From a plasmid: a DNA stretch of 64,000 bases. Numbering within the stretch: the stretch's first letter is position 1; each line of letters begins with the position of its first letter. The stretch is taken from sequence record NZ_CP072215.1; one strand, 5' to 3'. This document shows, piece after piece, positions 15,948 through 54,698 of the stretch. The notes under the pieces are model-generated. The model searched no databases. It saw nothing but the letters and a program-made list of their open reading frames with translations, and was not told where the DNA came from. The position numbers and the translations under genes were made by a program.

Positions 15948-16948
15948 TTATGATCTTCCTAATACAGACGGAATGTATCTTTTTATTAAGGTTGTCGCAA
16001 AATAGCATATTGCAACAATGAGTGCAAATTCCAATATGGTCCAACTGTAGTTTACAAGATGTAACTTATTGCGCACGATCCAGAATGTATCTACAAATAA
16101 TATATGTAGCCCCAATAATGCCAAACTGTTAATTCCACACCAAATCAATATTTTATCCAATGGAATAAGTTTCAGCTTTCTCGAATTAAAATATGAATTG
16201 ATAAACCAATAAAAATTCATAATAAAAACCATTGAAAGCAACAATAGATGCAATGGAAAATTGTTTGATTTTAAGTCAACGTAAGAGGGAAATAGAACGA
16301 TGAAAACAATGGCGATAATAAGCAAGAATAATGAGTATATCGGTGAAACCTTCATGCCGTACCATTTGTTCCGCATGAAGCAAAAACCAAGATGGTAATA
16401 AATCAAGGTAGACATTGTTGTGTCAATAAAATATGGCAAATCAATGTTATTAGCATTTAACCAATATCCTACTCCATATAATAATATACATAATGCGCTG
16501 ATTGTTAATGCTTTATTGTAGGGGTGATTTTATGTATCAATAAATAAACGAATGAAACCTCGAACAAACAAATTAAAAACCAAATTACATGAAATAAAAT
16601 AAAAGAGTTTTCATCACCGAGAAAACCATCAAACATACTCGTTACAGGGAGCGAGATCGCTTTTGCCCAATTATGAGTTTCGTTAAGTTTCAAAACGAAC
16701 AAATATGCGAACAACAAAAAGGCAAAAAAGGCCCAAGGAATCAGTAATTGTCTGGTCTTTTTTGCAAAAAACTCTCTCAAACTGATTGGACGAAAGAAAC
16801 AGCCTGACACAAAAAAGAAAAGGGGCATGTGAAAACTGTAAATAACGGTTTTCAACATGTAAGGGATTTGTATATGACCAAGGATGACCAATAAAATTCC
16901 TCCCCCTTTCAATATGTCAAAGGAGACAATCCGATTAGAGTCTACCAT
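15948..16948 (-). pseudogene. Acyltransferase-3 family O-acyltransferase, split by a frameshift/stop into a 147-aa N-terminal ORF (16505-16948) and a 163-aa C-terminal ORF (15948-16439)
   Basis: N-terminal ORF reads FDILKGGGILLVILGHI...HMPLFFFVSGCF (acyltransferase_3 signature). The C-terminal ORF is hydrophobic and in another frame. Summed length is about 330 aa, the normal size for the family. Confidence 0.6.
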
Positions 16949-18203
16949 CTACAACGTTTTTTTCAAAGATAGCTTTAACATCGAATATGACGTGTTGAGC
17001 ATTTAGTAACGTTTTTACATCAAAGCCTATAAACTGTTCGTGTGCTACAGCTATAATTGCCGCATCGAATTTCTTATCCAAAGGATGTTGGTTCGTTACC
17101 GAGATTCCATATTCTCGCATAACTATATCAGGATTGGCCCAAGGATCATATACGGTGATATGTACGTTATACTCTCGCAAAGCATTGTAAATATCTATAA
17201 CCTTTGTGTTCCGCACATCAGGACAGTTTTCTTTAAAAGTAAACCCTAATATGAGGATATGAGAGTTGAGCACCTGTATTCCTTTCTTCAGCATCAATTT
17301 CGCAACTTGGTTGGCCACATATTCCCCCATACCGTCGTTCATTCGGCGACCGGCTAAGATTATCTCAGGATTATAACCGTGACGTTGTGCACATTGAGCC
17401 AAATAATACGGATCAACTCCAATGCAATGGCCTCCAACCAGCCCAGGCTTAAATGGCAGGAAATTCCATTTGGTAGAAGCTGCTTCCAGTACATCCTGTG
17501 TATCAATGCCCATTTTAGTAAATATCTTGGATAGCTCATTCACAAATGCGATATTGATATCACGCTGTGAGTTTTCTATTACTTTGGCTGCTTCCGCTAC
17601 TTTCATCGTAGGAGCGAGATGTGTACCGGCGGTAATTACAGAAGCATATACCTCATTTACTTTCTTACCTATTTCAGGCGTAGAACCGGAAGTAACCTTT
17701 TTGATTTTTTCTACTGTATGAAGTTTATCTCCCGGATTTATACGTTCAGGGCTATAGCCAGCAAAGAAATCTTCATTAAATTTCAATCCGGACACTTTTT
17801 CCACAACCGGGATACATTCGTCTTCTGTAACACCTGGATAAACAGTAGATTCATACACCACAATATCCCCTTTGGAGATTACCTTACCAACAGTTGTGCT
17901 GGCACCGTAAAGCGGAGTCAAATCCGGATTGTTGTTTTTGTCTACCGGAGTGGGAACGGCAACTACATAAAAATTGTAATCACGGATTTCCTCTATATTG
18001 GCAGTACACTTAAAACCATTGGCAAGGGCAGATTGGAGTAGTTCATCTGACACTTCGAGTGTCGCATCATGACCTGCCATCAAAGCAGTCACACGAGCTT
18101 GGTTCATGTCAAAACCTATCGTTTTATACTTTGTCGAGAAAAGACGAGCCAAAGGGAGCCCTACGTAACCAAGACCAATTACGCAAATTTTAGTTTCATT
18201 CAT
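16935..18203 (-). CDS. UDP-N-acetyl-D-glucosamine (or mannosamine) 6-dehydrogenase, WbpO/TviB/WecC family
   Basis: N-terminal KICVIGLGYVGLPLA Rossmann motif with the catalytic GGHCIGVDP region. Paired with a WbpP-like epimerase. Confidence 0.85.
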   Translation of the reverse strand: MNETKICVIGLGYVGLPLARLFSTKYKTIGFDMNQARVTALMAGHDATLEVSDELLQSALANGFKCTANIEEIRDYNFYVVAVPTPVDKNNNPDLTPLYGASTTVGKVISKGDIVVYESTVYPGVTEDECIPVVEKVSGLKFNEDFFAGYSPERINPGDKLHTVEKIKKVTSGSTPEIGKKVNEVYASVITAGTHLAPTMKVAEAAKVIENSQRDINIAFVNELSKIFTKMGIDTQDVLEAASTKWNFLPFKPGLVGGHCIGVDPYYLAQCAQRHGYNPEIILAGRRMNDGMGEYVANQVAKLMLKKGIQVLNSHILILGFTFKENCPDVRNTKVIDIYNALREYNVHITVYDPWANPDIVMREYGISVTNQHPLDKKFDAAIIAVAHEQFIGFDVKTLLNAQHVIFDVKAIFEKNVVDGRL

Positions 18204-18225
18204 AATTTCATCTGTTATTATTACT

Positions 18226-19233
18226 TTAAATATTCTTCCAATACCATTTGACAGCCTCTTTCAAACCGTCACGCATACTGTATTGAGGATTGTAACCTAA
18301 AAGGGATTTTGCTTTATCAATACATGCCAAGGAATGGGGAATATCCCCCAAGCGGTTGGGACCATGAATTATTTTCACGTTGGCAATTTCGGGGTCAAAT
18401 TCACTCAAAAATTCTTTCAAGTAACCGACCAACTGGTTTAATGTGGTGCGTTCTCCGAAAGCAGTATTGTATACTTGGTTGGTTGCATTCGGATTTGTCG
18501 TGGTCATAGCCAGCATGTTCATTTGAATCACATTGTCTATATAAGTAAAATCGCGGCTATATTCACCATCTCCGTTAATGACAGGACTCTCATGAGCCAT
18601 GAATTTCTTAACGAACAAAGGAATCACCGCAGCATATGCCCCGAATGGATCTTGACGACGACCGAAAACATTGAAATATCGTAAGCCGATACATTCCATT
18701 CCATAGGTTTTGGCAAACACATCGGCGTAAAGCTCGTTTACATACTTTGTTATGGCATAAGGCGAAAGCGGTTTACCAATCACATCTTCTACTTTGGGAA
18801 GAGACTGACTGTCTCCATATGTAGAAGAACTTGCTGCATATATAAAACGCTTTACATTGGCATCGCGAGCGGCTGTCAGCATATTTAAGAATCCCGATAT
18901 ATTAGTTTCATTTGTAGTTATAGGATCTTTGATAGAACGTGGAACTGAGCCTAATGCTCCTTCATGCATAACGTAATCTACATTTTCTACAGCTTTCTTA
19001 CAATCGTTCAGATTCCGTATATCTCCTACGATAAGTTTAAACTTATTCGGATATCGTTGTAGAAATGGAAAAATGTTTTCAGGTTTACCTGTGGAAAAAT
19101 TATCCAAACAGATTACATCATAGTCGTGAGCCAATAAATACTCACATAAATTGGAGCCGATGAATCCCGCTCCACCAGTAACTAAAACTTTTGTTAATGA
19201 CATATGGATTGTTGTTTTATGTTGAAGTTGCAA
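18226..19233 (-). CDS. UDP-GlcNAc(A) C4-epimerase, WbpP/TviC-like (extended SDR)
   Basis: Strong resemblance to WbpP throughout, including GSVPRSIKDPITTNETNISGFLNML, YAITKYVNELYADVF and RYFNVFGRRQDP. Confidence 0.85.
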   Translation of the reverse strand: MQLQHKTTIHMSLTKVLVTGGAGFIGSNLCEYLLAHDYDVICLDNFSTGKPENIFPFLQRYPNKFKLIVGDIRNLNDCKKAVENVDYVMHEGALGSVPRSIKDPITTNETNISGFLNMLTAARDANVKRFIYAASSSTYGDSQSLPKVEDVIGKPLSPYAITKYVNELYADVFAKTYGMECIGLRYFNVFGRRQDPFGAYAAVIPLFVKKFMAHESPVINGDGEYSRDFTYIDNVIQMNMLAMTTTNPNATNQVYNTAFGERTTLNQLVGYLKEFLSEFDPEIANVKIIHGPNRLGDIPHSLACIDKAKSLLGYNPQYSMRDGLKEAVKWYWKNI

Positions 19234-19441
19234 GCCTATTGCTTGATAGGGGTGTAATGATTTATTTTAAGACTGGTTTGGATAAAAGAGAGATTGTGTG
19301 TATCTGCTCCAAGTCGATTGTTACAATTTCCATTGAATTCCAGCCTGTTGGATTTTTTTGTATGTATTTTATGCAAATCCACCTAGAGAGAAAAAGTTAA
19401 ACAGAATCTACAGGTCTTAATAACCGATAATTATAATCTAT

Positions 19442-20158
19442 TTAAACTATAACAGTCTGACTATCAATTAAACAGTTTTGTATATTTTTTGTAATACTCG
19501 TACAAATGAACTTTTGAAATATATTGTAATTGTGAATGTCCGTTCCTATATGAGTAATAGCCTTTTCTTTTAATAGCAGCATGGCTTTTTTCTTAATCCG
19601 GTTGCCATACATACCCGCTATTGACGGAAGATTGAACTGAAACTTCACTCCCATGTCTTTTAATTGTTGATAATCCGACTCACCCATATAAACATACCGT
19701 TCCGGATGGGCAAGAATGGGATAATAGCCTTTAGCCTTGATGCGGAGCAGAATGTTGTTCAATCCCATCGGAGGGTTAAAGTAGGAGGTTTCCACCAGTA
19801 GATGGTCACCGCTTTCACCCAAGGGCAGCAGATCGTTCTTTTCCAACCGTTCCTCGAAGAGGTTGTCAAGCATGTTCTCTGAGGCCAGATGCAGTTTTAT
19901 CGGACCGCTATAGGTGGCTTGAAGTTCAGCGTAACGCTCCCGGAGGTGCAGTGTGGTGTTGGGCATATCTTCCATGATATGCGGTGTAAGCCATACGGAT
20001 TTTATGCCCAACTCTTCATACAGGCGCAGTATTTCCAATGCTTCTTCCATCGTCTGCACACCGTCGTCCACACCCGGCAGAATGTGCGAGTGACAGTCGG
20101 TAAAATTCTTGAATATACCGCTATCTTTCAGCGATATACGTTTCCTGAATGGCCACAC
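19442..20158 (-). CDS. CpsB/YwqE-type PHP-domain protein-tyrosine phosphatase
   Basis: N-terminal FTDCHSHILPGVDDG PHP metal-binding motif. Partner of the Wzc BY-kinase. Confidence 0.8.
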   Translation of the reverse strand: MWPFRKRISLKDSGIFKNFTDCHSHILPGVDDGVQTMEEALEILRLYEELGIKSVWLTPHIMEDMPNTTLHLRERYAELQATYSGPIKLHLASENMLDNLFEERLEKNDLLPLGESGDHLLVETSYFNPPMGLNNILLRIKAKGYYPILAHPERYVYMGESDYQQLKDMGVKFQFNLPSIAGMYGNRIKKKAMLLLKEKAITHIGTDIHNYNIFQKFICTSITKNIQNCLIDSQTVIV

Positions 20159-26101: not shown

Positions 26102-27322
26102 TTAAAGTGTATTTAAAATAATACTGTTCGCTTTATCCACTACGGAGGTGTCTAACGATGCAAGATAAATCCGTGTAGTGCTTTCTGAATCATGTCCCAT
26201 AGCTTCGCTGATGGTAGCCAACGGAATGTTTTTGCTTCTGGCGATAGAAGCCCAGGCGTGACGTGCCACATAACTCGTCAGCGGAATAGGAAGGCCGATT
26301 TGTTTTCCCAATTTCTTTAGTTTTGAATTCACCAGCTGGGCTGCATTCTTGTATTGTTTCCGTTCATCCGTTTTTGCGTCGAGAATGATCGGCAATAGAT
26401 AAGAAGAACCTATGGTATCGTATTTATCTATGATTTCTTGCATGGGCTTTTCCCATTTGATTACTAGCTGTTGGTTGGTCTTTTTTCTGCGATATGATAA
26501 AAAACCGTTTTGCAAATTACTTTTCTTTAGATAAGCCATGTCTATAAATGACATCCCTCGGGTATAAAAACTGAACATAAATAGGTCTCTTGCATATTCC
26601 AAAGAGGAGTCGTGACTTAAATCCATATCGCGTATCTGTCGGATAATTTTGGCCGGAACTGCCCGTTTTACAGTTTTATCTATGCCCGTATATACATGTT
26701 TAAACGGATATCGCTGTATAACCAATTCTTTTTCTACGGCACGATTATACATGGCTCTGAGGTTTCTCATGTAATAGGAAGTACTGTTCGGACAAATGTC
26801 ATTAGATTTTAGATATTGTTCATATTCCATCATCAGGTTGGAGTCTATATTGTCGAAAGGGATGTCTCTGCCTTTCTTTCTGAAATTCATGAATCGCTTG
26901 AAGCTATTGAGCGTAGTGGTATAAGTTTCTGTGGTGCGTATTTTACCTATTTGTCTCAATTCTTCAATGAGATTCTCACAAAATGACACAAAGTACTCGT
27001 TCACAGGAGGAGCGGAATAATATTCAATGATTTCGTCTGCCGTATATTTGTATCCAAGATTCTCAAATCTTATCATAATATCTTTTAGACGTGAGGTGTC
27101 TTCCTCAATACATTTTTTTAAAGAAACCAAATACCGATGCCGGTTTTCTCCTGTCTTTGCTGGTATGATTATTTGGGAATTGAAAATATCCCACTCGTCA
27201 GGATAAATCTTGTATCCTGAATTTATCTGCCTTGCTACACGATTATGAATTACTTGATAGAACAATGTTCCCGCTTTTCCTTCTATAGAGGAATGTCGAT
27301 ACTTTATTTTTAATGATGCCAT
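26102..27322 (-). CDS. Tyrosine site-specific recombinase/integrase
   Basis: C-terminal HAWASIARSKNIPLATISEAMGHDSESTTRIYLA is the catalytic R...H-x-x-R...Y region typical of Bacteroides integrases. 406 aa. Confidence 0.85.
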   Translation of the reverse strand: MASLKIKYRHSSIEGKAGTLFYQVIHNRVARQINSGYKIYPDEWDIFNSQIIIPAKTGENRHRYLVSLKKCIEEDTSRLKDIMIRFENLGYKYTADEIIEYYSAPPVNEYFVSFCENLIEELRQIGKIRTTETYTTTLNSFKRFMNFRKKGRDIPFDNIDSNLMMEYEQYLKSNDICPNSTSYYMRNLRAMYNRAVEKELVIQRYPFKHVYTGIDKTVKRAVPAKIIRQIRDMDLSHDSSLEYARDLFMFSFYTRGMSFIDMAYLKKSNLQNGFLSYRRKKTNQQLVIKWEKPMQEIIDKYDTIGSSYLLPIILDAKTDERKQYKNAAQLVNSKLKKLGKQIGLPIPLTSYVARHAWASIARSKNIPLATISEAMGHDSESTTRIYLASLDTSVVDKANSIILNTL

Positions 27323-27502
27323 TTTTTTGTTTAATTAATATTATATTCTCCAAAATAAATGTTTTGGCGTATTATATGTTTAATAACCAATAAATTAGAT
27401 AACTGTTTGATTTTGATTATAGTTGGATTTATATTGATATGGCGAAATACTTGGCTATTATATATCAATGTGAATAATGTTGGATTTTATTCTTCTTTTA
27501 TT

Positions 27503-27870
27503 TCCGTACTGCCCTTTTCCTTGTTTTCTGCCTCCCCTAATGTACGTTTTTTCATAGCCCCGTCTGAGAGCCTTTGTTTTTGAACGGCAAATTTATTTCG
27601 GTGGATGGATACGAAAGAGTTCCGGTCTTCGCCCTTTGTACCGAAAAAAATAACGCCGGACGGCTTCGCTGTCCCCAACATTTTTTGTCGTCCAAAACTT
27701 TTCTCAATCCCTCCTTCCTTCTTGTTGTGTGCCGTAAAAAAAAGGCTTATAAACTCAGATGGGGCATGAAAGCTCAAAAAAAAAGTCGGCAGAAAGAAAA
27801 GGTCATCCCGGAAAGGGGTTTTAAAAAAAGGTCTTTAAATCTAGCTGAAGCATAAAATTAGAAGTTTAAC
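27503..27870. repeat. Conserved ~368-bp non-coding element, copy 1. A ~96% identical copy lies at 62290-62657 and a partial 3-prime copy at 56215-56340.
   Basis: Near-identical sequence strings seen directly. Each copy ends about 20-40 bp upstream of the first gene of a plus-strand operon. Confidence 0.9.
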
Positions 27871-27888: not shown

Positions 27889-28200
27889 ATGATTACAGTG
27901 ACGGAACAACTAAAGAATGTGTTTGAAGCCAACCCTTTGTACTCAAAAGAGGGGCAGGGGCTTAATGCGGAAGTCATCGCAAGGTTTTTCCTTCCTTTTT
28001 CTTCGGTGGTATGGTTGGTAACGGAAGCCGAACAGCAGGAAGACGGTGACTGGCTTTTTTTCGGTTATTGCCATATTCAAGAATGGGAATGGGGTTATGT
28101 GCTTCTTTCTCAAATTCAAGAGGTGAATGTTCGTGGGTTGACCGTGCAGCTGGATAAAGGACTGAAAACCGGTATAACGGTAAAAGCTTGCCTGAATTGA
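27889..28200 (+). CDS. DUF2958-family protein, common in Bacteroidetes conjugative elements
   Basis: Motif PLYSKEGQGLNAEVIARFFLPFSSVVWLVTEAE...DWLFFGY...EWGYV matches the DUF2958 pattern as recalled. Confidence 0.6.
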   Translation: MITVTEQLKNVFEANPLYSKEGQGLNAEVIARFFLPFSSVVWLVTEAEQQEDGDWLFFGYCHIQEWEWGYVLLSQIQEVNVRGLTVQLDKGLKTGITVKACLN

Positions 28201-28252
28201 TTAGAGAATAAACGGAGAGGGAACAACCCCTTTCCGCTTTCCAACCGGAATA

Positions 28253-28510
28253 TTGAACTTAAAAACGGAAGTTATGGTTTACGAGACGAATTGCACGGAA
28301 ATAACACAGGACAAATGGCGTGAGCTGATGAAGTACGGTAGAAAATGCTCCTATCGGCTGCTTACGGCGAGAATCAAGCGGGAATTGCCGGAATTATACC
28401 ATGCGCTGGCTCTCCAGTTCTATAATCCTTATGCGGAACAGTGCAGGCAGACACCCACACATTATATATTGGTTCATTCGGCCATTGAATATTTTATCAG
28501 AAAACAATAA
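28253..28510 (+). CDS. Hypothetical small protein (85 aa)
   Basis: ORF in an operon-like array downstream of the DUF2958 gene. Confidence 0.4.
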   Translation: MNLKTEVMVYETNCTEITQDKWRELMKYGRKCSYRLLTARIKRELPELYHALALQFYNPYAEQCRQTPTHYILVHSAIEYFIRKQ

Positions 28511-28517
28511 AGGACAA

Positions 28518-28772
28518 ATGGTTATGAAAACAAAAAAGGTTGATAAAAAGAAAACGCTGGCTTATGCGGTGGCATTTTACTTTACGGATGTTTCCGTAAA
28601 GTTCATGATGGGGAATGCGATGTATGAGTATGTACATACCGTTTATGACAGGCGGTATGATAACGGTGGCTTTAATACGCTTGCCGTAGTCTATAATTAC
28701 AAGAGGATGAAGTACGAGGTATTGGTCGTATCGGACGAGAAGGTAGGTGATAAGGAGATTCATATATTATAA
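28518..28772 (+). CDS. Hypothetical small protein (~84 aa; ORF 28401-28772 with likely start MVMKTKK)
   Basis: ORF with a plausible start after AAAGGACAA. Same array. Confidence 0.4.
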   Translation: MVMKTKKVDKKKTLAYAVAFYFTDVSVKFMMGNAMYEYVHTVYDRRYDNGGFNTLAVVYNYKRMKYEVLVVSDEKVGDKEIHIL

Positions 28773-29253
28773 GTTTCACAAACAGGGCTTTTGCCATATA
28801 AAAACGGCTTTTGAGATGAAAAAGTTATCGGCTTATACGGTTGCATCCAACTGCACCGACTTGACGGATATACGTGACGGCATCGCTGAAATACATGAAG
28901 CGATGAAGACTTGCGTTGAATCCGGGAAACATATCCCTTCATTCTATGTTTCCCGGTTGGCCAAACTGGAAACTAAAAAGAAGAAACTGGAGAAACGGAC
29001 GCAGGTACACATGACCGTCACCATCCGTTTCTTTATAGATGATGATACCCTTACAATGGCAGTCAGGCATTGCCTTTTCTTCAAGCTGGAACCGACTCGG
29101 CAGAATGTGATGAAAGCCATCCGTGATGCGGTTCTTAATAACGGACGTTCCATTCTTGACTTTCCGGAAGCATGGGGAGAAGATCTTATGGATGTGTCTT
29201 TCTTTGATGTGGAGAATGCCATGAAGAAGCTGCGTTCCTCATTCGGCCTATAA
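28747..29253 (+). CDS. Hypothetical protein (start probably the internal MKKLSAYT...)
   Basis: 168-aa ORF. Followed by a compound terminator-like palindrome. Confidence 0.45.
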   Translation: MIRRFIYYKFHKQGFCHIKTAFEMKKLSAYTVASNCTDLTDIRDGIAEIHEAMKTCVESGKHIPSFYVSRLAKLETKKKKLEKRTQVHMTVTIRFFIDDDTLTMAVRHCLFFKLEPTRQNVMKAIRDAVLNNGRSILDFPEAWGEDLMDVSFFDVENAMKKLRSSFGL

Positions 29254-29520
29254 ACTTCATTGCATATTTTTCCGAAAGTAAAGTAACCGTTGGATTTTTG
29301 GCCAGCGGTTCTTTTTTCAAAAAAGAACCAAAAACTTTGAATACAATCTTTTTTCATCTTCTAACTTATGTATTCGGAAAAAATTCCATGGCATTCAGAA
29401 AAGGGATGATAGCGGTTTGGGGATTATAGGGTAGATTTGTGGGGTAAGCTTACAGAGACAGTTTTTATAGGCAGGTTCCGAAAAGCCTTTGAGAGAGTAG
29501 GAGAACATGAGTTATAATAT

Positions 29521-30030
29521 ATGGCTATAAGTATAAATGATAGACAATTGATTACACAATTTATTACTAATACTCAGAATTTGAATGTTAATTTACCTAC
29601 AAATGGTGGAGGGTGTGCTAATTTAGTTAGAGGAATTATAGAACAGGCAACAGGAAAAAGAATTTCAGTTAATCCTTTTGGAGCTTCTTTAGAAAGTATG
29701 ATACAAAAAATAAATACCTATCATGATTTAGCTAAATGTAATAATGGAGATATATTATATTTTGTGCATCTTCCTAATGCTGCTGTAAATTTACATCAAA
29801 CTATTCATTATGCAATTTTTTGTAATGTTAATAATGCTGGTGTACAGAAAAATGTTATTGGGATAAATGGATTAGCAGATCTTTCTTTTTCTCCCACAGC
29901 TTATCATGGTGTTGTAGCATCTGTAATATCTCCGGGTAATTTTAATGGAGTAGGGCAGGTGATATATGATACTGTAGCATTCCCTAATATTCTTGGTGAA
30001 TTGTATGTTATTGATTATGAATTGATATAG
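29521..30030 (+). CDS. Low-GC orphan protein (169 aa), possibly a Cys/His (papain/CHAP-like) hydrolase
   Basis: Coding sequence is about 30% GC against about 45% for its neighbours. Motifs GGGCANLVRG and TIHYAIF are weakly reminiscent of CHAP/NlpC-P60 Cys and His motifs. Confidence 0.45.
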   Translation: MAISINDRQLITQFITNTQNLNVNLPTNGGGCANLVRGIIEQATGKRISVNPFGASLESMIQKINTYHDLAKCNNGDILYFVHLPNAAVNLHQTIHYAIFCNVNNAGVQKNVIGINGLADLSFSPTAYHGVVASVISPGNFNGVGQVIYDTVAFPNILGELYVIDYELI

Positions 30031-30445: not shown

Positions 30446-31972
30446 TTATCTTCTAGCTAAAGGCAGTAACAACCGTTCCACAAGTTCTTTCTTGTTCTCA
30501 ACGGGCATCTTGTTTCTGCCTTTGGCAATGACTTCAGCAGCCAAATCGCTTTTACGCCCGGCAATGTATTTCTGTCGCTTTCCGTTTATGAAGGCCTCGA
30601 TACGGAAATCATGCCGGGTGTTTTCGATGATGTTGATTTCTGATACCAAAAAGCCATCCTCTGTCTCGTAGGGTTCGACAATGGTGGGCAGGTAGTGTTT
30701 CATGGTTTTCCCTATGATCGGAGATACCAAACCGGAAAGATGCTCTTCGATGCGGTCTTTCCAATAGTCATCGATTTGATGATTGGTGGCATAATCGTAA
30801 AAATGGCTGATGGCAAGGCTGACTTCTTCGATTATCCTTTTCGCATTCTTTATTCCGTTCTGTTTGGCAAATTGCATCAGGTCATCTTCCGTGATGTCGT
30901 TATCTTTTCCTGCAATGCTCATGGAGTGTGCGTTTTCGTATGCCGCACCGTCCAAATTGGTGGTGAATGTCATGTCGTAGGCTGGGGTGATGTGCCATGT
31001 GCCGTTTCTTTCCATCAGGAAAGAGAAATTCTTGATGTGGTCATCCACATTGCCGCCCATGATATTGAATACCGTCCTACGGTAGAGTTCGGACTGTTCG
31101 CTTGCCGGGATGTTCAGTTTTCGGCAGACTTCAAACAAATCCTCATAGCTCGTTGCATCCGGATTCATGGCAGCAAGTGTCTGTGTATGTATCTTCTCTC
31201 CGTTTATCCTATCGTAACGCTCCGTCAGGAAGTGATGTTTTCCCTCAATTTGAATGAGTCGGGAAGGCATCATCGTAATCCCGGCTTCCTTTGCCATCTC
31301 ATAATATACCATTTCCATTTGCGTGAACGGAAAATCGTCCCCTTCTGCAAACTTCAATATGTAGTAGGTATAGCCCTCCGGTAAAGGGACTTGGCCGGAA
31401 CGTATATCATGTGTCGTTTCATTGATGGCGATGATGGCTTTCGGGTGCTGCCCTCCGGCTGATGTACCTATCTCATAGATACTTTGCAGTTGCAGTGCTT
31501 CGTCATCTTGCACGGATATTTCCTCCCGTTCCTCAAAGATACGGCGTGCCAGTTGGTATAAACTCTCTATCTGGAGAGTGGAAGAGGATTCCAATCCAGG
31601 AGTGGCCGGGATGAACTCAAAGGCTCCCATTCCCCGTTTCCCGATGAAAGACAGTTTATCTACCGGTGTGAGTTTGCGCTTGGGGATATGGTTTTGTGCC
31701 GCCCATTGGTCGAAGACCATGTTACCCCACCGATCAGGCAATGAATCTGCCAAAAACGGTGGGAGACCTTGATAAGTCTTTTCTTTGTTTCCGAGTATGG
31801 GCATACCCTTTGCCGCCGGTCCTTTGACAGAAGCGGTCAGTGGGGCGATTTCCACTCCTTTCTTGATGAAATCCGGATGATAGTTGAAGACGGCTCTTTT
31901 GTTTCTTTCGTCCCAATAGAGCTTTCCGACTTCTTCTCCCCATAACATAACACTCACAACATTATTTTCCAT
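30446..31972 (-). CDS. hipA: HipA-family serine/threonine kinase toxin (module 1)
   Basis: HipA N-terminal domain (VMLWGEEVGKLYWD...FNY) and the catalytic loop VFNIMGGNVDDHIKNFSFLM (compare E. coli VFNLLIGNTDAHAKNFS). 508 aa. Confidence 0.85.
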   Translation of the reverse strand: MENNVVSVMLWGEEVGKLYWDERNKRAVFNYHPDFIKKGVEIAPLTASVKGPAAKGMPILGNKEKTYQGLPPFLADSLPDRWGNMVFDQWAAQNHIPKRKLTPVDKLSFIGKRGMGAFEFIPATPGLESSSTLQIESLYQLARRIFEEREEISVQDDEALQLQSIYEIGTSAGGQHPKAIIAINETTHDIRSGQVPLPEGYTYYILKFAEGDDFPFTQMEMVYYEMAKEAGITMMPSRLIQIEGKHHFLTERYDRINGEKIHTQTLAAMNPDATSYEDLFEVCRKLNIPASEQSELYRRTVFNIMGGNVDDHIKNFSFLMERNGTWHITPAYDMTFTTNLDGAAYENAHSMSIAGKDNDITEDDLMQFAKQNGIKNAKRIIEEVSLAISHFYDYATNHQIDDYWKDRIEEHLSGLVSPIIGKTMKHYLPTIVEPYETEDGFLVSEINIIENTRHDFRIEAFINGKRQKYIAGRKSDLAAEVIAKGRNKMPVENKKELVERLLLPLARR

Positions 31973-32282
31973 GTCTTATCCTTTTCGGCTTTTTATTCAT
32001 TATTCGTTCCATTGTATAGGCTGAAACAGGTATTTCCGGCATCAGATCATCCATCTGTTCCAGACAGTCCACTACTCGTAACAGGGCAAGAAAGTTGCCC
32101 ATATTGATGTTATAGGCCTTCCCGTTCTCAAACTGGCGTAAGGTGATAAGGCTGACACCGGCTTTCTCGGCAGCCTCTTTTTGGGTGAGCCTATAGGTTA
32201 GCCTGTATTCCTTAAATCGTCTGCCCAGTTCCACTATGATTTCCGGATTGGCCATGGCTTGGGTGATGTGATTCGTTGTCAT
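31962..32282 (-). CDS. hipB: HipB-like XRE-family HTH antitoxin (module 1)
   Basis: HTH LTQKEAAEKAGVSLITLRQFENGK. 11-bp overlap with hipA-1. A 16-bp perfect palindrome (32294-32309 and 32326-32341) lies upstream as a candidate operator. Confidence 0.8.
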   Translation of the reverse strand: MTTNHITQAMANPEIIVELGRRFKEYRLTYRLTQKEAAEKAGVSLITLRQFENGKAYNINMGNFLALLRVVDCLEQMDDLMPEIPVSAYTMERIMNKKPKRIRHGK

Positions 32283-32381
32283 TTTACAAAGGTAAATATA
32301 TTAATTGTTAAATCAAAATATGATATATAACAATTAATATATTTACTGTTATATTGAATTGTGCGCGATGTAGTTTGTGTG

Positions 32382-33971
32382 CTAATCCCCCAATTCCATG
32401 CTACGTTTATTGCCGCCTGTAATCGGGCTTTGCGCGGGTTTTATGTCCTGAAGGCTTTTTAGCATCCCTTCCATTTGGAAGATTTTGGCGGCAGCGATGA
32501 AGGTGGTGGCGGATACATCCGGCTGGAGGCTTTTCAGTGTGTTCTCCGATGGCTGATATCCTCTCATCTTCAGTTTCAGAATGGTATTGAAGTCATCATT
32601 TCGCATAGCCTTCATGAAAGCCTGCTCTTGTTCGTTGGCAATGTCCGGCATATGGATCGTATGCAGTTGCTTGCCGAACAAGAGCAGGTTTTCTCCGATA
32701 AAATCGGCGTGTTCCGGCTTGACCCCGCAATCCTTGGCAGTCTCATGCCAATGCGATACGGTTTCCTGTATCTCTTCGATAATCTGTTTGTGTTTCCGGA
32801 TACCCATGTTCTCACCTACCTTTTGCAGATCTTCCATCGTGAAATTGTCTTGTTTGCCGTTGAGTGACAGCTGGTGGCGGTTCGTCCATTTGCCGCCCGG
32901 TGTGTATGAGTAGCAGAGGTCGTATGCTGGGGCCAGTTTCCACTTCCCTTGTCTATCCATCAGGAAAGATAAGTTCTTGCTATGGTCGTCATGGTTCCGG
33001 CTCATGACGTTGAACACCATTCTTCGGTATAGTTCCTCCTGCTCTGGATAAGGGAGGTTCATCTGCCGCATGATACGGAATATCTCTTCGTATGAATGGC
33101 GTTGGTCACGGTCATAGTGGGCAAGCCCGGCCAATGTCTGTACATGGATCTTCTCTCCGTCTTCCATACGGTCAAAACGTCGTGTCATAAAGTGATATGA
33201 CTCTTTTTCCTGAAGTAACCGGCATTCCATCATATCGATACCGCAGGCTTTTGCCATCCGGTGATAGGCATATTCGATATTTCCTATTCCTTGTGGATTG
33301 TCCGTTATCTGCGTGTGTTCGCTGTATTTGCCGCCATCAAATTTCAACAGCCAATACCCGAATCCTTCAGGAGCTTTTACCTGTCCGGAGCGTACCTCTC
33401 CGGTAATATCGTTGTAGGCGATGATGGCCTTGGGCTTGGCACCTCCGGCAGATGTTCCCACTTTCAGTATATCCAGAATGTTTCTTCCTTCCTGGCGCAG
33501 TTGGACCTGAAAAGCCATTCTGTCCGTGAATACGGATTTGGCAAGCTCAGTCAGTTCCTCGATATGGAGCACTGATGATTCGTTCATGCCGTTGATTGGC
33601 GAGGACGGCTCAAACTCCAGTGCGCCCATGCCACGTTTGCCTACATAGCAAAGCCTGTCTAAAGGGGTAATCTCTTCTCCGGACAATCCCTTGCTGGCAA
33701 ACCATTCATTGATGATCTGGTTTCCGAAAGTGTCCGGCAGTGAATCGGCAAACAGGCCGGGCAACCCCTTGAAACAGTCGGTACGGTTTTCAAGGAACCG
33801 GTAGGGGGTGTTCCTGTACTGGCTGATGGGCATGATGATGGGAGAAATGTCAAGACCGGAGCGGATGAACTTCCGTTCATAGTCGAACAAGGCGGCATTG
33901 CTTTCCTTTTCCCAATAGAGAGAGCCTACGCTTTCTCCCCATAGCTTTACATCTACTATCAAATCATTCAT
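32382..33971 (-). CDS. hipA: HipA-family serine/threonine kinase toxin (module 2) with a ~100-aa C-terminal extension
   Basis: Catalytic loop VFNVMSRNHDDHSKNLSFLM. About 45-50% identical to HipA-1 by eye. 529 aa. Confidence 0.85.
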   Translation of the reverse strand: MNDLIVDVKLWGESVGSLYWEKESNAALFDYERKFIRSGLDISPIIMPISQYRNTPYRFLENRTDCFKGLPGLFADSLPDTFGNQIINEWFASKGLSGEEITPLDRLCYVGKRGMGALEFEPSSPINGMNESSVLHIEELTELAKSVFTDRMAFQVQLRQEGRNILDILKVGTSAGGAKPKAIIAYNDITGEVRSGQVKAPEGFGYWLLKFDGGKYSEHTQITDNPQGIGNIEYAYHRMAKACGIDMMECRLLQEKESYHFMTRRFDRMEDGEKIHVQTLAGLAHYDRDQRHSYEEIFRIMRQMNLPYPEQEELYRRMVFNVMSRNHDDHSKNLSFLMDRQGKWKLAPAYDLCYSYTPGGKWTNRHQLSLNGKQDNFTMEDLQKVGENMGIRKHKQIIEEIQETVSHWHETAKDCGVKPEHADFIGENLLLFGKQLHTIHMPDIANEQEQAFMKAMRNDDFNTILKLKMRGYQPSENTLKSLQPDVSATTFIAAAKIFQMEGMLKSLQDIKPAQSPITGGNKRSMELGD

Positions 33972-34278
33972 GGTTATCTTGTTTTAAATGGCGTACACGG
34001 TAGCGTTTCTTTCCTTGCAGTTTTTTGAGCTCTATCGGGCTGACCCGGATTTCCGGTACCAGTTGCTCCAGGTTCTCCAGCAGGCCGAGCGAGCGGAGTA
34101 CGCTGATGAACAACAGCAGCGATACCGATTTGCCCTTCTCGATGTTCGCAACGGTCAAGGGGCTTACACCGGAAGCCGTTGCCAGTTCTTCCTGCGTGAT
34201 ATGCTGCCTGATACGTGTCTCTTTGATGCGCTGGCCGATTCTCATCAGCACAGCTGGATTGCTCATTTCATTCCACAT
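33964..34278 (-). CDS. hipB: HipB-like XRE-family HTH antitoxin (module 2); start taken at MWNEMSN rather than the upstream Met
   Basis: HTH ITQEELATASGVSPLTVANIEKGK. 8-bp overlap with hipA-2. A 12-bp palindrome (34321-34332 and 34346-34357) lies upstream. Confidence 0.8.
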   Translation of the reverse strand: MWNEMSNPAVLMRIGQRIKETRIRQHITQEELATASGVSPLTVANIEKGKSVSLLLFISVLRSLGLLENLEQLVPEIRVSPIELKKLQGKKRYRVRHLKQDNHE

Positions 34279-34439
34279 GGTTGTTCCTTTTTTGCAAATA
34301 TACAAATAATCCATGTAAATATATAGATTAACTTGAATATATGATGTTAATCTATATGAATACAATGATTATAGTTGCTTTATCGGCTGTTTTTTTCTTT
34401 GAACTAGGATGAAAACTGACTAAAATCACAATGTGTTGT

Positions 34440-44660: not shown

Positions 44661-44796
44661 AATCAGAATCTAAATAAAAACGGTTATGGCAACAATGGCG
44701 GAGAAAATGGCGGCTTCACTGGAGGAATTAAGAAAGCTCCAGGAGAAAGACCGCTGTGTCGTCCTGCAAGGGACGGCCGAGATAGGGAGGACGCAT

Positions 44797-45309
44797 TTAA
44801 CCCGGCTGTTGGATAACGGCTGGTTGCAGGAAGCCTAATCCGAAGCCGTCTTTTGCGGCGGCATTTGAAAGACGTTCAAATGCACCGAATACTCGTTGTT
44901 GCTCATCTTCGGTCATGCCCGTACCGGTATCTTCAACGATAAGTTTCAGCAAACCGTTATCATAATCCGCTGCCAATGATACACTACCGTTATCCGTGAA
45001 CTTGATGGCGTTTGACAACAAGTTGTTGCCGATTTGCAGGATACGTTCCTTGTCGGTCAAAACCACCGCATCGGTGTGGCTCTCCACTATCAAAGTCAGC
45101 CCCTTGTTCATGGCAATGGGCATGAACTCCGTTTCAAGAATATGCGTGATTGCGGAAATCCTGCAAGGGGAAAGGTTGGGTTGCTCCTTGCCGTTGTCCA
45201 GACGGAAGAAATCCAGCAGCGTGTTGAGCATCTCCCGCATACGCTCGGAAGATTGCCGGATATTATCCACATACATGGTGCTTTTATCCGCGCTACAACT
45301 TTTCTGCAT
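44797..45309 (-). pseudogene. 5-prime-truncated sensor histidine kinase fragment (HisKA-HATPase_c portion only)
   Basis: Has HATPase motifs (NLLSNAIKFT, EDTGTGM) but no N-terminal sensor or TM region. The ORF begins right at the end of the adjacent radical SAM gene. Confidence 0.6.
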
Positions 45310-47768: not shown

Positions 47769-48668
47769 ATGGACGAGATAATCAACCCTGATCGACTGGT
47801 CAGCGTACCGTTCAACAAGACACGCTGCGGCGTGGATTTTTACATCAATACTGCCATAAACAAGGACATCGGACTTGTGCTGACAGAAAACAAGCGGTTT
47901 AAGACAGACTTCTTCAGCTTCTACTTTTTCCGTAAGGCAAACGGATATTTGCTACTGAACTTCCGCAAGATTGAACTGCGCGACGGCATGGTTCTCCTGC
48001 TTTCACCCCATCAGCAACAAGAGTGGCATGTAGATGAGACGGCGTTGGATTACACGTTCCTTATATTCCGCGAAGATTTCATGCGTACTTTTATCGCCGA
48101 CAAGTTCTTCGTTTTTCGCCTTTTGTATTGTTACCAGACAGATACGCCGCCTTACATCAATGCCACACATGACGAAATGAAGGAATATATGCGGCTGCTC
48201 GGAAAGATTAAGTATGAGCTGATGAATCCAGTGTCCGATACGTACAATATCATTGTTTCCTTACTATATTATCTTTTGCTGATTATCAATCGTACATACG
48301 CTGCCGCCTATTGCTTGCCCGCTGAAATTGCTAAAAACAATTTCGCTTTTCGGTTCAAGGACTTGTTGGAACAGAATATCCGCACCCACCAGCGGGTGCA
48401 GGAATATGCAGACATGCTTCATGTCAGTCGCATCACACTCAATAACTCAGTAAAAGCCCAATTCGGAGTATCAGCTACCCATTTGATAAAACAACGTCTG
48501 CTTGAGGAACTGAAGAACGAATTGCTATTCTCCAACCGCACTGTCAGTGAAATGGCGGATGATTTCAATTTCTCTGATCCGAGCCATCTCATGCGCTTCT
48601 TCAAACAGCAAACAGGCAAAACATTTACTCAGTACATGACGGATTACAATAAAGGCATATACGAATAA
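47769..48668 (+). CDS. AraC-family transcriptional regulator
   Basis: C-terminal AraC HTH pair (ITLNNSVKAQFGVSATHLIKQRL, HLMRFFKQQTGKTFTQY). 299 aa. Confidence 0.8.
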   Translation: MDEIINPDRLVSVPFNKTRCGVDFYINTAINKDIGLVLTENKRFKTDFFSFYFFRKANGYLLLNFRKIELRDGMVLLLSPHQQQEWHVDETALDYTFLIFREDFMRTFIADKFFVFRLLYCYQTDTPPYINATHDEMKEYMRLLGKIKYELMNPVSDTYNIIVSLLYYLLLIINRTYAAAYCLPAEIAKNNFAFRFKDLLEQNIRTHQRVQEYADMLHVSRITLNNSVKAQFGVSATHLIKQRLLEELKNELLFSNRTVSEMADDFNFSDPSHLMRFFKQQTGKTFTQYMTDYNKGIYE

Positions 48669-49608: not shown

Positions 49609-50556
49609 TTAGAACCCAACACCTCTCTTGCGCTTAACTTTCTTCCTTCTGCGAAGTATATCCACCATTTCCTGATTGGCTTCCGCATCAGCAGTGTTAT
49701 AAGATGAGCCACTGCTTTTTAGCAATCCCCAAGAGCCGTTGAACAACTCGCTTTGTGCCGTGCCGGACGGTGCGCTTGGTGTAGCCGTTTCATATATTCC
49801 GGCTGTTATTCCCATACGTTCCCTGCATCTGTTGTGCTGCAAAGCCGCGTCAATCTTGGAATAACTGAAACGCCTGTCCACTTTGGAGCCGTTGAAATGG
49901 TAGCCATTCATGGAGAATACAACACCCTGCACCTCGCTGGTCTGCCCCTTATGCTTGAAATGTACTTCCACTCCCTGCCGTTTCAGGTTGGCGATAAGCA
50001 CGTTCCAGTTGCCGCATCTGCCGACTTCCATTTTGATGATGTCGTAAAGCGCATATTTCGTCCTGTCTGGCTCTTTCAGGCGGTTGCGTTTGACATTGTC
50101 CTTTCCGCCAGCCATATGCAAGCCGTATTTCAAGGTCAATTCCTTGCAGATGCGGGTACTGCGCAGACGCTCGTGCCTGTCCGATATGGTATTGCCGTTG
50201 TTGTCTATGCGGTTGAAAGCAATATGCACGTGCGGATGCTCCTTGTCGAAATGCTGGGCGATGAAGAACTGCGTATTCTTGATTCCCATCCGTTCCATAT
50301 ATTCAAGCGCGATGCCTGCCATGATACGGTTCGTCAGCCGTAACTCATCCTCTTTGGAAAAACTCAACGCGATATGTCCGACAGGTTTTGTCACCTTATC
50401 GTTCATCCGTGACTGGGCATTGAAACTCATGGCGATAGTTTCCAGATTTTCCATAAACAAGCCTTCGCTTGCTACTATCTGCGTATCCTTCTTCTTGTCG
50501 ATGATGTAATCCACCGCACCCTTGAAGTCGCTTCCTTTTACGATTTTCGCCATCAT
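49609..50556 (-). CDS. Relaxase/mobilization nuclease (second mobilization module)
   Basis: Catalytic His motif HPHVHIAFNRID and an N-terminal relaxase fold. 315 aa. 4-bp overlap with the upstream accessory gene. Confidence 0.8.
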   Translation of the reverse strand: MMAKIVKGSDFKGAVDYIIDKKKDTQIVASEGLFMENLETIAMSFNAQSRMNDKVTKPVGHIALSFSKEDELRLTNRIMAGIALEYMERMGIKNTQFFIAQHFDKEHPHVHIAFNRIDNNGNTISDRHERLRSTRICKELTLKYGLHMAGGKDNVKRNRLKEPDRTKYALYDIIKMEVGRCGNWNVLIANLKRQGVEVHFKHKGQTSEVQGVVFSMNGYHFNGSKVDRRFSYSKIDAALQHNRCRERMGITAGIYETATPSAPSGTAQSELFNGSWGLLKSSGSSYNTADAEANQEMVDILRRRKKVKRKRGVGF

Positions 50557-50945
50557 ATCCCTATCTTGGTTATAAGTTCATGAATCCTTGCCACTGCCAC
50601 CTTGCAGTCCCACCGTTCATCGTGGAAGCCTCCGGCGTTTGCCTTACGCGCAAGCTGGTTGAGATTGTTAGCCATGCCGCAGAGTTGGCGGATGTATCCG
50701 GCATGTTCCTCCGACAGCCGTTCTTTCACATGACCGTTACGGAAACATTCCCTCATGTACTCGCTTGGTGATACGCCCGCCTCATGCGATCGTGTCAGCA
50801 GGCGGAAGTAGTCGGCTGCCGTCATTTTCACTGCGATACGGTATTTCAGTTTCTCGGTTGCTGTTAATTCTTTGTATTTTCTTACCTGCCTCAAATCCGC
50901 AACTAAGCCCTTCAACGTCCTTCTTGCGTGTACACGTCCTCTCAT
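50553..50945 (-). CDS. MobC/MobA-like relaxosome accessory protein (RHH)
   Basis: 130-aa basic protein directly upstream of, and overlapping, the relaxase, matching the layout at 1-1784. Confidence 0.6.
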   Translation of the reverse strand: MRGRVHARRTLKGLVADLRQVRKYKELTATEKLKYRIAVKMTAADYFRLLTRSHEAGVSPSEYMRECFRNGHVKERLSEEHAGYIRQLCGMANNLNQLARKANAGGFHDERWDCKVAVARIHELITKIGI

Positions 50946-51059: not shown

Positions 51060-52301
51060 TTATCCAAAATCAGTCTGAAAAATATCTGCGTAAGCATTGT
51101 TACAGGTATAGATATTCAGCACATACCGCCTTGATGTCCTGATCCACTTGGCTGGTACAGAGATAAACCTGAAGACAAACGCTTTTATGCGACTTGTTGC
51201 ATTGAGTCCGAACCTCTTTACGTCAAGTCTTTGGATAATGGCCTTGTAGAAGTTACGGATAAGTGCTGTAAGAAGAAGGAACACAGTGTTCTCGGCCATG
51301 AAGGATTTGGGCAATCTGTCCCACCCGAAACCATTGTTCATATCATCAAAGATACGTTCCTTTCCTCCACGAAGGTTATAGAACTCGACAATTTCTCTTA
51401 CGGAAGATTCATAGTCGTTAGTCAGGATACAACGGTATGTGTATTCTCCTTCCCAAAGATCCTGCACACCATCCATCCGTTTCTGTCTTTGAATCACAAG
51501 TCGGTATGCTTTACCCTTCCACTTCTCAACAAGGATAGAGTTCAATTCAAACTCAATGCCATTGATTTCCTCAGTCTTCCAGCCTCTGAGAGCAAATATG
51601 TCATTGTAGAGCGAACTGCAGCGGTTAGTGCGGATATAGAAGGACTTGCAGTGTTTCTCTATTTCCTCCACGATTTCCTCGGAACATGATCCGCAATCAG
51701 CTCTGAAACGATTGATAGTGAGCCTGTTCTGTTCAAATCTCTCAAAGAACCTCTTCAGCGTGTCCTTCTGATGAAAACGAAGGTTTTCGTTAAGCCAGAT
51801 GAGCAGAGCTAAGTTTACTTAAGCTCTGCCATGGCGAGAAAACGTGCCATGAAATGGAACTTTTGTGTTACCATCGCTATTCTCAATGCCAACAATCAAG
51901 TCACCAATAACCGCCACGCCAGGGCGATAACCAGAGAACTTCTTGTATGTAGGCTTTGCATCATACTTCTCACCCTCTTTCAGTTGGTCAGATGCAAACA
52001 TACAATTGAGCAGTAAAGTATTGAGAGTGTCAGCCGTGTTGAAATCGTAGTTCTTACCCGTATCTGATGTGTATGAGATGTTTTCTTGCGTCAGTTCCTT
52101 TATCGCTCTGAGGATAGTATCAGAACTACAAGTATGAAGTGTCGGATGAAGCGAGAGATGGTTCATCAAATGAGTAGTGACATCCTCAATACATGAGCCA
52201 CCACAGAAGTAGATACTCATGAGAGAACGGATGATTTCGCTGTACTGATAACCTAACGATCTACACCTTAGACCGAGGGTTGAGTCGATTACAGATGACA
52301 A
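51060..52301 (-). pseudogene. IS1380-family (IS4/IS1380 superfamily) DDE transposase split into two ORFs (51819-52301 N-terminal, 51060-51671 C-terminal)
   Basis: C-terminal signature ...EIVEFYNLRGGKERIFDDMNNGFGWDRLP...AENTVFLLLTALIRNFY. A stop/frameshift between the ORFs. Combined length about 413 aa. Confidence 0.6.
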
Positions 52302-53886: not shown

Positions 53887-54209
53887 AACCGTCCACGTTT
53901 CACGGTTTTTTATAGAATTAGTTGTGTAGAAGTGTCCCTATTGGGGTGATTAGATGTGTGGAGTCATCCGCTTTGCCTGTTTTAGTTGTGTAGAAGTGTC
54001 CCGTTTGTTGCTTCTAGTTGTGTAGAACCGTCCACTCCTTTTGCTTTAGTTGTGTAAAAGCGTCCGGTTTCACTTGTCAGCTGTGTAAAACCGTCCACCC
54101 GTTAATGAAGGGAATAGGTAATCCCTGTTTTTTTTATATGTCGGTATATCAGTGAAATAAAAGAGAGAAATTTTTAAATAAAAGGTATCGGCTGTGTAAA
54201 ACCATCCAC
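53876..54209. repeat. Iteron array: 7 copies of a ~20-bp repeat ([tc]ag[tc]tgtgta[ga]aa[cg][ct][ga]tcc), with an AT-rich segment between iterons 6 and 7. Candidate oriV.
   Basis: Copies begin at about 53876, 53920, 53983, 54015, 54048, 54078 and 54190. Spacing from copy 3 onward is about 30-33 bp (three helical turns). AT-rich stretch at 54100-54185. Confidence 0.8.
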
Positions 54210-54698
54210 CAAAATACATAATAAAGACCTAAACTCCTAACCCCTTTAAATATCCCCAAAGCGATAACATAGAAATGACTGGGAAAATAAATTTTCCCTT
54301 CACATGCCCTATACGTACTTTCGGAAAAAGATTTTTCGGAAGTATGTGTTGATTTTCACGCTTTTTTATATGATTGGAAGGCGGTTCTGTTCATCTTCTG
54401 TATCCGAATTAGTTTTTCAGGGCGTTCCCTTCTGACCGGGCTATTCGTTGCAAGTCCTCGTTACCCTCCAGGCTTTTCCCTGCTATCCCTAACGCTCTAC
54501 GCTCCGGCTATGCCGGAAGAGAGGTATGATGATTTTTTCCTGAACTGATAGGAACATTGCGAAGGTAGGCGTGGCCGGAACGCCCGATATTGAAAAGCCA
54601 AATCTCCATCCTCCCATTCCGGGAGGTAGTATTTACCAGTTCAATCCCGTTCTGATCCGTCTTTCCCGCTTTCTCTTCAATGCACTGTTCCCAATCAG

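Follow-up and report, generated by a model that had tools for sequence, protein, structure and literature searches.

A covarying hairpin with an inverted −7 box precedes establishment-type operons of Bacteroidales plasmids and may act as a single-stranded-DNA promoter

A plasmid sequence of 64,000 nucleotides (nt) (record NZ_CP072215.1; the whole stretch is referred to as the window) carries three copies of a non-coding element of about 370 nt that forms one long hairpin and stands directly before operons of small genes. We propose that this element is a single-stranded-DNA (ssDNA) promoter of the Frpo/ssi kind for the Bacteroides primary sigma factor and drives establishment genes after conjugation, a reading that we judge to be an even call. 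Within this proposal, we infer the transferred strand, the use of the folded strand by RNA polymerase and the timing of expression. A first-pass annotation of the window had noticed a repeated non-coding element before unrelated operons, and that description holds (fold z-scores of −3.5 to −5.3 overall and −4.3 to −5.3 with DNA parameters; 144 strong family matches); its suggestion of a switch-on after conjugative transfer agrees with the mechanism that we find best supported. The copies, designated A, B and C, and their parts are as follows (ORF, open reading frame; aa, amino acids).

27496–27870, + strand: copy A, hairpin element (core of family 1) before the DUF2958 operon; nhmmer, 376 bits
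27496–27589, no strand assigned: 5′ arm of copy A (stems P1, 27501–27557, and P2, 27558–27589), from folds, composition and P1 covariation
27588–27595, − strand (opposite to the genes): canonical Bacteroides −7 box of copy A, TAAATTTG, an exact match to TAnnTTTG
27596–27729, no strand assigned: central branched domain of copy A with helices P3–P6, from alignments, helix covariation and a box scan
27730–27817, no strand assigned: 3′ arm of copy A (P2, 27730–27764; P1, 27784–27817), from folds and composition
27818–27870, + strand: conserved 3′ tail of copy A outside the hairpin (AAAAAAGGTC..AAATCTAGCTGAAGnATAA), near-invariant in 31 lineages
27889–30030, + strand: operon after copy A, consisting of the DUF2958 gene (27889–28200) and four small ORFs
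55993–56337, + strand: copy C, full-length and diverged, before a 132-aa ORF (56330–56728); nhmmer, 242 bits
56074–56081, − strand: variant −7 box of copy C, AACCTTTG, with one mismatch
61969–62283, + strand: 315-nt upstream extension of copy B, with several GC-rich hairpins
62284–62657, + strand: copy B, hairpin element before the LPD28 gene (62679–63158); nhmmer, 385 bits; Pfam LPD28
62375–62382, − strand (opposite to the genes): canonical −7 box of copy B, TAAATTTG, a perfect match
49–1784, + strand: mobC and a MobA/VirD2-type relaxase gene, on the strand shared with all three element copies

Copies A and B are 96–98% identical. The third copy, previously taken to be partial, turned out to be a full-length diverged one, which covers model positions of about 30–450 with conserved islands along its entire length and is regarded as non-coding because its indels are not multiples of three. 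ORFs inside the element had been called spurious, rightly so given the indels between copies; RefSeq nonetheless annotates some of them. In the plasmid NZ_CP059857.1, short RefSeq hypothetical proteins lie inside hairpin elements at 16279–16473, 45094–45291 and 48278–48475, and indels between copies speak against their being genes. The gap to the first start codon is 19 nt in copy A (ATG 27889), 22 nt in copy B (ATG 62679) and either −7 nt (ATG 56330) or 17 nt (ATG 56354) in copy C, and the first genes are mutually unrelated, encoding a DUF2958 protein (A), an LPD28 protein (B) and a 132-aa protein without a Pfam hit (C). Copy B is part of a repeat of about 690 nt that starts at 61969, the extension of which (61969–62283) has a GC content of 52% versus 42% and near-perfect hairpins (z −5.7). 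A terminator-like hairpin in this extension (62251–62276) ends 7 nt before core B, likewise in the other long copies, and would insulate the genes from upstream sense transcription.

The whole core folds into a single long, imperfect hairpin that branches at its top—an inverted repeat of about 330 nt in which stems P1 and P2 join a pyrimidine-rich 5′ arm (72% pyrimidine on the + strand of copy A) to a purine-rich 3′ arm (70% purine on the same strand) and close the central branched domain, which is the part of the element with the highest sequence conservation. Folded as minus-strand DNA, copies A and C reach −58.1 kcal/mol (z −4.3) and −55.1 kcal/mol (z −4.4), respectively. The small hairpins reported by the first-pass annotation (cccggaaagggg and ggtc-ggct-gacc) exist, but are not separate structures; they lie within the 3′ arm of the one element-wide hairpin. 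Covariation was counted on an alignment of 31 lineages onto which the fold of one lineage had been mapped; RNAalifold on MAFFT alignments does not recover P2 or the whole of P1, the variable arms being poorly aligned. Paired cells amounted to 85% in the 31 lineages, compared with 45–57% when the partners were slid, and compensatory changes were found in 50 pairs, with the observed values reached in none of 500 shuffles. At the variable base of P1, 17 of 19 pairs covary, and an arm pairs at −21.5 kcal/mol with that of its own lineage and at −14.4 kcal/mol with those of other lineages. Covariation and own-arm pairing therefore indicate selection for base pairing within one strand. The conserved secondary structure that had been thought worth looking for is thus present as a covarying hairpin, but without a match among known covariance models: no model of Rfam 15 hit the element at the gathering threshold, and the best match at E ≤ 10 was a spurious STnc430 (E = 4.7).

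Promoters of Bacteroides follow the consensus TAnnTTTG at −7 and a weaker TTTG at −33 (PMC7366714); sigma-70-type promoter scans were discarded as irrelevant for this group. A −7 box on the strand opposite to the genes is located where stem P2 meets the central domain in nearly every lineage, copy A included. Across 90 unique cores its positions read T (71%), A (100%), n, n, T, T, T and G (100%), with nn switching between AA, CC and AG. Matches to TAnnTTTG have a base rate of 0.44 per kb per strand. The window holds 53 other perfect boxes, many of them on the sense strand 17–82 nt upstream of start codons, and the motif therefore acts as a real promoter signal in this plasmid. In the minus-strand fold of copy A, the TAAATT of the box is unpaired in an internal loop and its TG is paired, opening stem P2. 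In duplex DNA, the box points away from the genes. No conserved −7 box was found on the sense strand in the core, in the tail or in the 120 nt before the core.

These features suggest the following course of events. During conjugation, the strand antisense to the operons (the minus strand of the window) would enter the recipient alone, and its inverted repeat would snap into the long hairpin. At the top of P2, the entering strand would present the canonical −7 box, partly unpaired in the internal loop, with the other arm of the same molecule serving as the strand opposite and downstream of it. Because that arm is paired there, RNA polymerase would transcribe towards the genes: starting in P2, it would run down P2 and P1, leave the hairpin at its base and continue into the single-stranded gene template. 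The template would be the minus-strand complement of the 3′ arm, so that the + sequence would become the 5′ part of the mRNA leader, within which the 3′ tail of copy A would also fall. The predicted leader of about 150 nt is A-rich (45% A) and has no structure beyond chance (z −0.01, the value for copy A, and −1.55); it would be followed by establishment-type genes (DUF2958, LPD28 with an orphan methylase, RadC/JAB, PRTase with SLOG, and PcfK/PcfJ). Once the complementary strand had been made, expression would stop because the box in the duplex points away from the genes. The antisense strand would be the template because relaxases typically enter last (PMC11541004) and the elements are co-oriented with the relaxase. 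A precedent for such an arrangement comes from F and IncI1 plasmids, in which repeated hairpin ssDNA promoters precede ssb, psiB and ardA (PMC11541004, PMC12672017).

We further characterized the distribution of the element. A profile search (nhmmer) of 126 sequences, comprising the window and fetched loci, yielded, among its strong matches, 120 full-length copies that represent 91 unique sequences and 31 clusters at 95% identity. Exact-pattern scans gave 17 loci when one genome per species was scanned and at least 106 loci in metagenomes, and blastn in distant mode against 72,556 plasmids gave 15 matching records, only from Bacteroides, Parabacteroides and Phocaeicola. A pattern match in a metagenome-assembled genome (MAG) of Promethearchaeota was rejected as a chance match. 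Contigs binned as MAGs of Oscillospiraceae, Bacillota and Lactobacillus johnsonii are 90–100% identical to the pMMCAT plasmid, to whose family the window belongs (see below), and are probably mis-binned.

The supposition that the element regularly precedes the first gene of accessory operons was confirmed: of 120 copies, 119 are followed by an ORF that starts within about 25 nt of the element end (mostly 16–21 nt). Nine families account for these first genes, mainly RadC/JAB, DUF2958, the 132-aa family, PRTase (then SLOG) and a family, possibly related to LPD28, that has no Pfam hit; these cargo genes are of the establishment or anti-defence type. All 17 loci with several copies have them in uniform orientation. 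NZ_CP059857.1 has five family 1 copies at 16, 44, 53, 56 and 62 kb, all on the relaxase strand, preceding DUF2958, PcfK/PcfJ, PRTase with SLOG, an operon of LPD28 and an orphan N6-methylase, and the 132-aa gene. Four copies are present in CP103159.1, a more distant plasmid from B. fragilis, and these too share the strand of the relaxase gene; when both hairpin families are counted (the second is described below), 7 of 7 copies in NZ_CP059857.1 and 6 of 6 in CP103159.1 lie on that strand. In every locus that has ssb genes together with family 1 copies, the two point the same way, and the gene for the coupling protein points the other way. In CP103159.1, the relaxase gene is followed on the same strand by umuD, a Y-family polymerase gene and an IHF-beta gene (17661–20075), types of gene that are enriched in the leading regions of proteobacterial plasmids.

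Placement and orientation bear on two alternatives. The element might be the boundary of a recombination cassette, as had been considered, or a remnant of a miniature inverted-repeat transposable element or insertion sequence that landed between operons. Such an origin would fit the long terminal inverted repeats, the several copies per replicon and the mosaic combinations of core and extension; we nevertheless find it barely credible, as the compared flanks contain no target-site duplications, the copies are uniformly oriented and always sit just upstream of an ATG at the fixed distance given above, the arms covary instead of being conserved like transposase-binding ends, and no associated transposase or integron integrase was found. 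To a second alternative, an initiation site of the ssi or sso type, we assign a slight probability. Here the hairpin would only recruit RNA polymerase or a toprim primase to make a primer for the complementary strand, and the link to genes would be secondary. Frpo has a priming function in DNA synthesis as well (PMC12672017, citing Masai and Arai 1997), the presence of several scattered copies per plasmid would speed conversion to duplex, and the plasmid encodes a toprim protein and single-stranded-DNA-binding proteins. However, the fixed distance to the ATG across nine gene families points to an expression role, the predicted transcript enters the genes, and priming overlaps with promoter activity on ssDNA rather than excluding it.

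A second repeat without sequence similarity to family 1 precedes both ssb genes of NZ_CP059857.1, outside the window, from which this repeat is absent.

44770–45075 and 47954–48259 of NZ_CP059857.1; also in CP103159.1 and one further locus (47981–48311, 51654–51984): family 2 hairpins

The proximal ~310 nt of family 2 form one long hairpin, and the family co-occurs with family 1 in many loci. A perfect TAnnTTTG lies on the strand opposite to ssb, half of it in an internal loop, and is kept in 24 unique copies (TATATTTG in 9, TAACTTTG in 6, TACCTTTG in 4 and TAAATTTG in 2). The path from this box through the hairpin to the ssb ATG is 41 nt, a normal leader length for Bacteroides, in which the median 5′ untranslated region is 32 nt (PMC7366714). 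Family 2 lacks the 3′ tail of family 1. The GC-rich extension, where present, is nearly always directly upstream of family 1 cores, and a 69%-similar copy of it lies upstream of family 2 (NZ_CP059857.1, 45499–45726). A candidate third class upstream of a RadC gene (53900–54780), consisting of a hairpin and a one-mismatch box, was not convincing. Taken together, Bacteroidales plasmids and integrative and conjugative elements (ICEs) may have their own class of ssDNA promoters—a generalization whose chances we put a little short of even—in which hairpins of two or more unrelated families expose a pre-melted sigma-ABfr −7 box on the transferred strand and together control an establishment regulon (ssb, RadC/JAB, DUF2958, LPD28 with methylase, PRTase with SLOG, and PcfJ/K) that would fire only between DNA entry and synthesis of the complementary strand.

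The first-pass annotation had suggested a shared promoter or operator, or else a leader RNA; a common non-coding expression signal is supported, whereas a structured 5′ leader RNA on the sense strand is not favoured. Such a leader, transcribed from an upstream promoter and acting as an RNase III processing site, as a protein-binding leader or in antitermination, is in our view unlikely. It is compatible with the covariation, which is symmetric between strands, and the fold of the + strand is significant too (z −3.5 with RNA parameters and −5.3 with DNA parameters). The branched, highly conserved central domain looks like structured RNA, sense-strand −7-like boxes with one mismatch are found at the 5′ boundary of the 690-nt repeats and also ahead of the family 2 extension, and the precedent of the EGeRS1 repeats of pLS20 leaves room for an RNA mechanism (PMC8708921). 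On the other hand, the terminator-like hairpin of the long copies would stand 7 nt upstream of the supposed leader, neither the core nor the 120 nt preceding it has a conserved canonical sense-strand promoter, Rfam offers no match, and the opposite-strand −7 box—the only conserved canonical one, with the conservation pattern of a promoter in two unrelated families—would be left unexplained. In 29 of 31 lineages, moreover, the two arms form a more stable duplex on the minus strand than on the + strand. The minimum free energy of the whole element also favours the minus strand (16 of 16 copies with RNA parameters and 12 of 16 with DNA parameters), a comparison that carries little weight because it is partly an effect of composition.

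The element could also be a regulon signal in duplex DNA, similar to the CUP repeats of IncN plasmids, with a non-canonical promoter and an operator in the tail or central domain and with the inverted repeat either incidental or a protein-binding palindrome. We consider this distinctly improbable. The tail (AAAGGTC..AAATCTAGCTGAAGnATAA) and the central domain are conserved beyond the needs of pairing, and CUP repeats provide a precedent for repeated upstream sequences that bind a regulator, ArdK. Regulated expression in established cells is suggested by a preprint on pMMCAT, in which the invertase and six neighbouring small genes were co-induced in metronidazole-treated biofilms (bioRxiv 10.1101/2024.04.29.590671), near copy A. 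Yet neither tail nor core contains a canonical −7 box on the sense strand, the compensatory pairs spread over a ~330-nt hairpin point to selection on intramolecular pairing and not to a protein-binding palindrome, and family 2 has the same design of hairpin and inverted box without the tail. Upstream of the start codon of the invertase gene at 27322, the minus-strand box of copy A is the sole perfect −7 box; it may therefore drive transcription leftward too when the DNA is duplex, and the operon may be active in established cells that suffer DNA damage.

Several observations weigh against an ssDNA promoter. In about a quarter of the lineages, copy C among them, the first T of the box is replaced by A or G. 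The only −33-like element in family 1, located in copy A on the minus strand of the central domain, is TTTC at 17–18 nt from the box, not TTTG at 19–21 nt; in family 2, none is evident. The one-mismatch sense-strand boxes at the 5′ edge of the 690-nt repeats, mentioned above, belong here too, as does the conserved central domain, which together with the 3′ tail (GGTC..AAATCTAGCTGAAGnATAA) is more elaborate than a promoter role needs. Wobble pairs do not settle the strand. Counted in 16 copies with a Watson–Crick-only structure, G·T outnumber A·C pairs by 20 to 4, towards the + strand, a count dominated by near-identical copies; across the 31 lineages, the ratio is reversed (14 G·T versus 27 A·C); and with a fixed structure, 108 G·T versus 83 A·C pairs give no clear strand choice. 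No nic site could be oriented relative to known nic consensus sequences when the oriT inverted repeats were inspected and two plasmids were aligned (conserved palindromes of the region are TTAATC-nn-GATTAA and GCAAGGT...ACCTTGC), our search of the literature on nick polarity in Bacteroides found nothing usable, and in pLS20 comparable repeats lie on the non-template strand (PMC8708921). With the polarity assumed here, the tra region would enter first and the elements would lie 23–72 kb from oriT, an arrangement unlike a classical leading region beside oriT; in NZ_CP059857.1, with oriT near 20.3 kb, the nearest copy would be about 23 kb away. With these points taken into account, an ssDNA promoter rather than a leader RNA is the most likely mechanism.

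Large parts of the window are identical or near-identical to Bacteroidales plasmids of 70–110 kb, such as NZ_CP059857.1 (76 kb), and the window is part of a conjugative Bacteroidales plasmid of the pMMCAT family; its gene layout matches that described for pMMCAT (bioRxiv 10.1101/2024.04.29.590671). The oriT lies directly upstream of the window start. A polysaccharide locus of about 20 kb on the minus strand (4.6–27.3 kb) includes a NusG-like gene and a tyrosine recombinase gene; pMMCAT has a 24-kb extracellular polysaccharide locus with invertible promoters and an invertase (bioRxiv 10.1101/2024.04.29.590671). Between the polysaccharide locus and the recombinase gene (26102–27322) are two perfect inverted repeats, of 19 nt (25381–25399/25578–25596) and 18 nt (25756–25773/25952–25969), which fit the two invertible promoters described for pMMCAT. 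The remainder of the window contains blocks of small genes, toxin–antitoxin pairs, a Rep-like gene with iterons and a second mobilisation module. Inside the DUF2958 operon, a DUF805b motif (Rfam RF02914, 35.9 bits) at 29468–29503 has a canonical −7 box upstream (29432–29439) and a 169-aa ORF downstream (29521–30030). Two HTH–HipA toxin–antitoxin pairs stand in tandem at 30446–34365 and have common segments that are 72–98% identical (repeats D2, D3, D9 and D10). The second module of MobC and a relaxase (315 aa; 49609–50945) lies on the opposite strand and adjoins AraC, MBL and radical-SAM genes; it probably represents the insertion of a mobilisable element that has an oriT of its own. A 402-aa HTH gene (52678–53886) directly followed by seven copies of a 23-nt iteron-like repeat (53875–54210) is probably the replication initiator with the origin.

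In the literature on Bacteroidota, we found no description of ssDNA promoters or of these repeats, nor did we find an earlier account of an element of this kind beyond plasmids of the E. coli type, and the pMMCAT preprint does not mention the repeats (bioRxiv 10.1101/2024.04.29.590671). According to the literature consulted, experimental demonstrations of ssDNA promoters are confined to IncF and IncI1 plasmids of E. coli (PMC12672017), and large-scale searches for them rely on sigma-70 boxes or homology to Frpo (PMC11541004), which would miss elements of the Bacteroidales kind. Few mobile elements of the human gut are shared as widely as plasmids of the pMMCAT type and the ICEs related to them. 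Should the proposal hold, Proteobacteria would no longer be the only group with an ssDNA promoter system, and the strategy would have evolved independently for a very different promoter grammar. The hairpins would then mark, by sequence alone, the genes that these elements need during the first minutes after entry into a new host; for the most part, the marked genes are of unknown function, and some may be anti-defence genes. The system would also offer a direct way to test how a pre-melted −7 element that lacks a −33 partner is used by Bacteroides RNA polymerase, and compact parts for transfer-dependent expression in Bacteroides engineering. If the element instead encodes a leader RNA, it would be a large, widespread and undescribed structured leader, also of interest.

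Known systems share individual features with the element. The ssoA and ssoU origins of rolling-circle plasmids are likewise orientation-specific folds of ssDNA recognised by host RNA polymerase, but they yield a short primer uncoupled from downstream genes, occur on small rolling-circle plasmids and have RSB and CS-6 motifs, which are absent here. CUP repeats with a duplex promoter were reportedly described by Delver and Belogurov in 1997. In the IncN plasmids pKM101 and R46, these are likewise conserved repeats before unrelated ORFs of the establishment region and define a co-regulated set of operons; they exceed 400 bp (as cited in PMC6294495) and contain binding sites for the ArdK repressor in duplex DNA (PMC6289460). 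By contrast, the Bacteroidales element is defined by a covarying hairpin and has no conserved sense-strand −7 box; no search for a repressor was made. The EGeRS1 repeats of the pLS20 family in Bacillus, 400–600 bp long and rich in inverted repeats, precede establishment operons and have no strong duplex promoter (PMC8708921). Their layout resembles the 690-nt form with its GC-rich extension, without any sequence relationship. The two differ in that the transferred strand of pLS20 is the non-template strand and no promoter was found in the fold (PMC8708921), whereas the Bacteroidales element has a canonical −7 box on the putative template-side hairpin.

The closest parallel is with Frpo/ssi of IncF and IncI1 plasmids (F, ColIb-P9 and pESBL). 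There is no sequence similarity between them and the Bacteroidales element (blastn in distant mode, 72,556 plasmids), the apex of the latter is branched, and its copies are spread over about 50 kb far from oriT instead of being clustered in the leading region; its activity on ssDNA is a prediction. Frpo/ssi use a sigma-70 −35/−10 pair, whereas the Bacteroidales element has the −7 box TAnnTTTG with a weak or absent −33. What they have in common is the design: imperfect hairpins of about 330–370 nt (the Frpo-type hairpin is about 330 nt long), several per plasmid and in one orientation, placed directly before establishment operons (ssb, anti-restriction and methylase genes). A promoter element for the primary sigma factor of the host lies inside the Frpo/ssi hairpin on the antisense strand, and the Bacteroidales element has a candidate counterpart in its conserved −7 box, with only TTTC at 17–18 nt as a −33.

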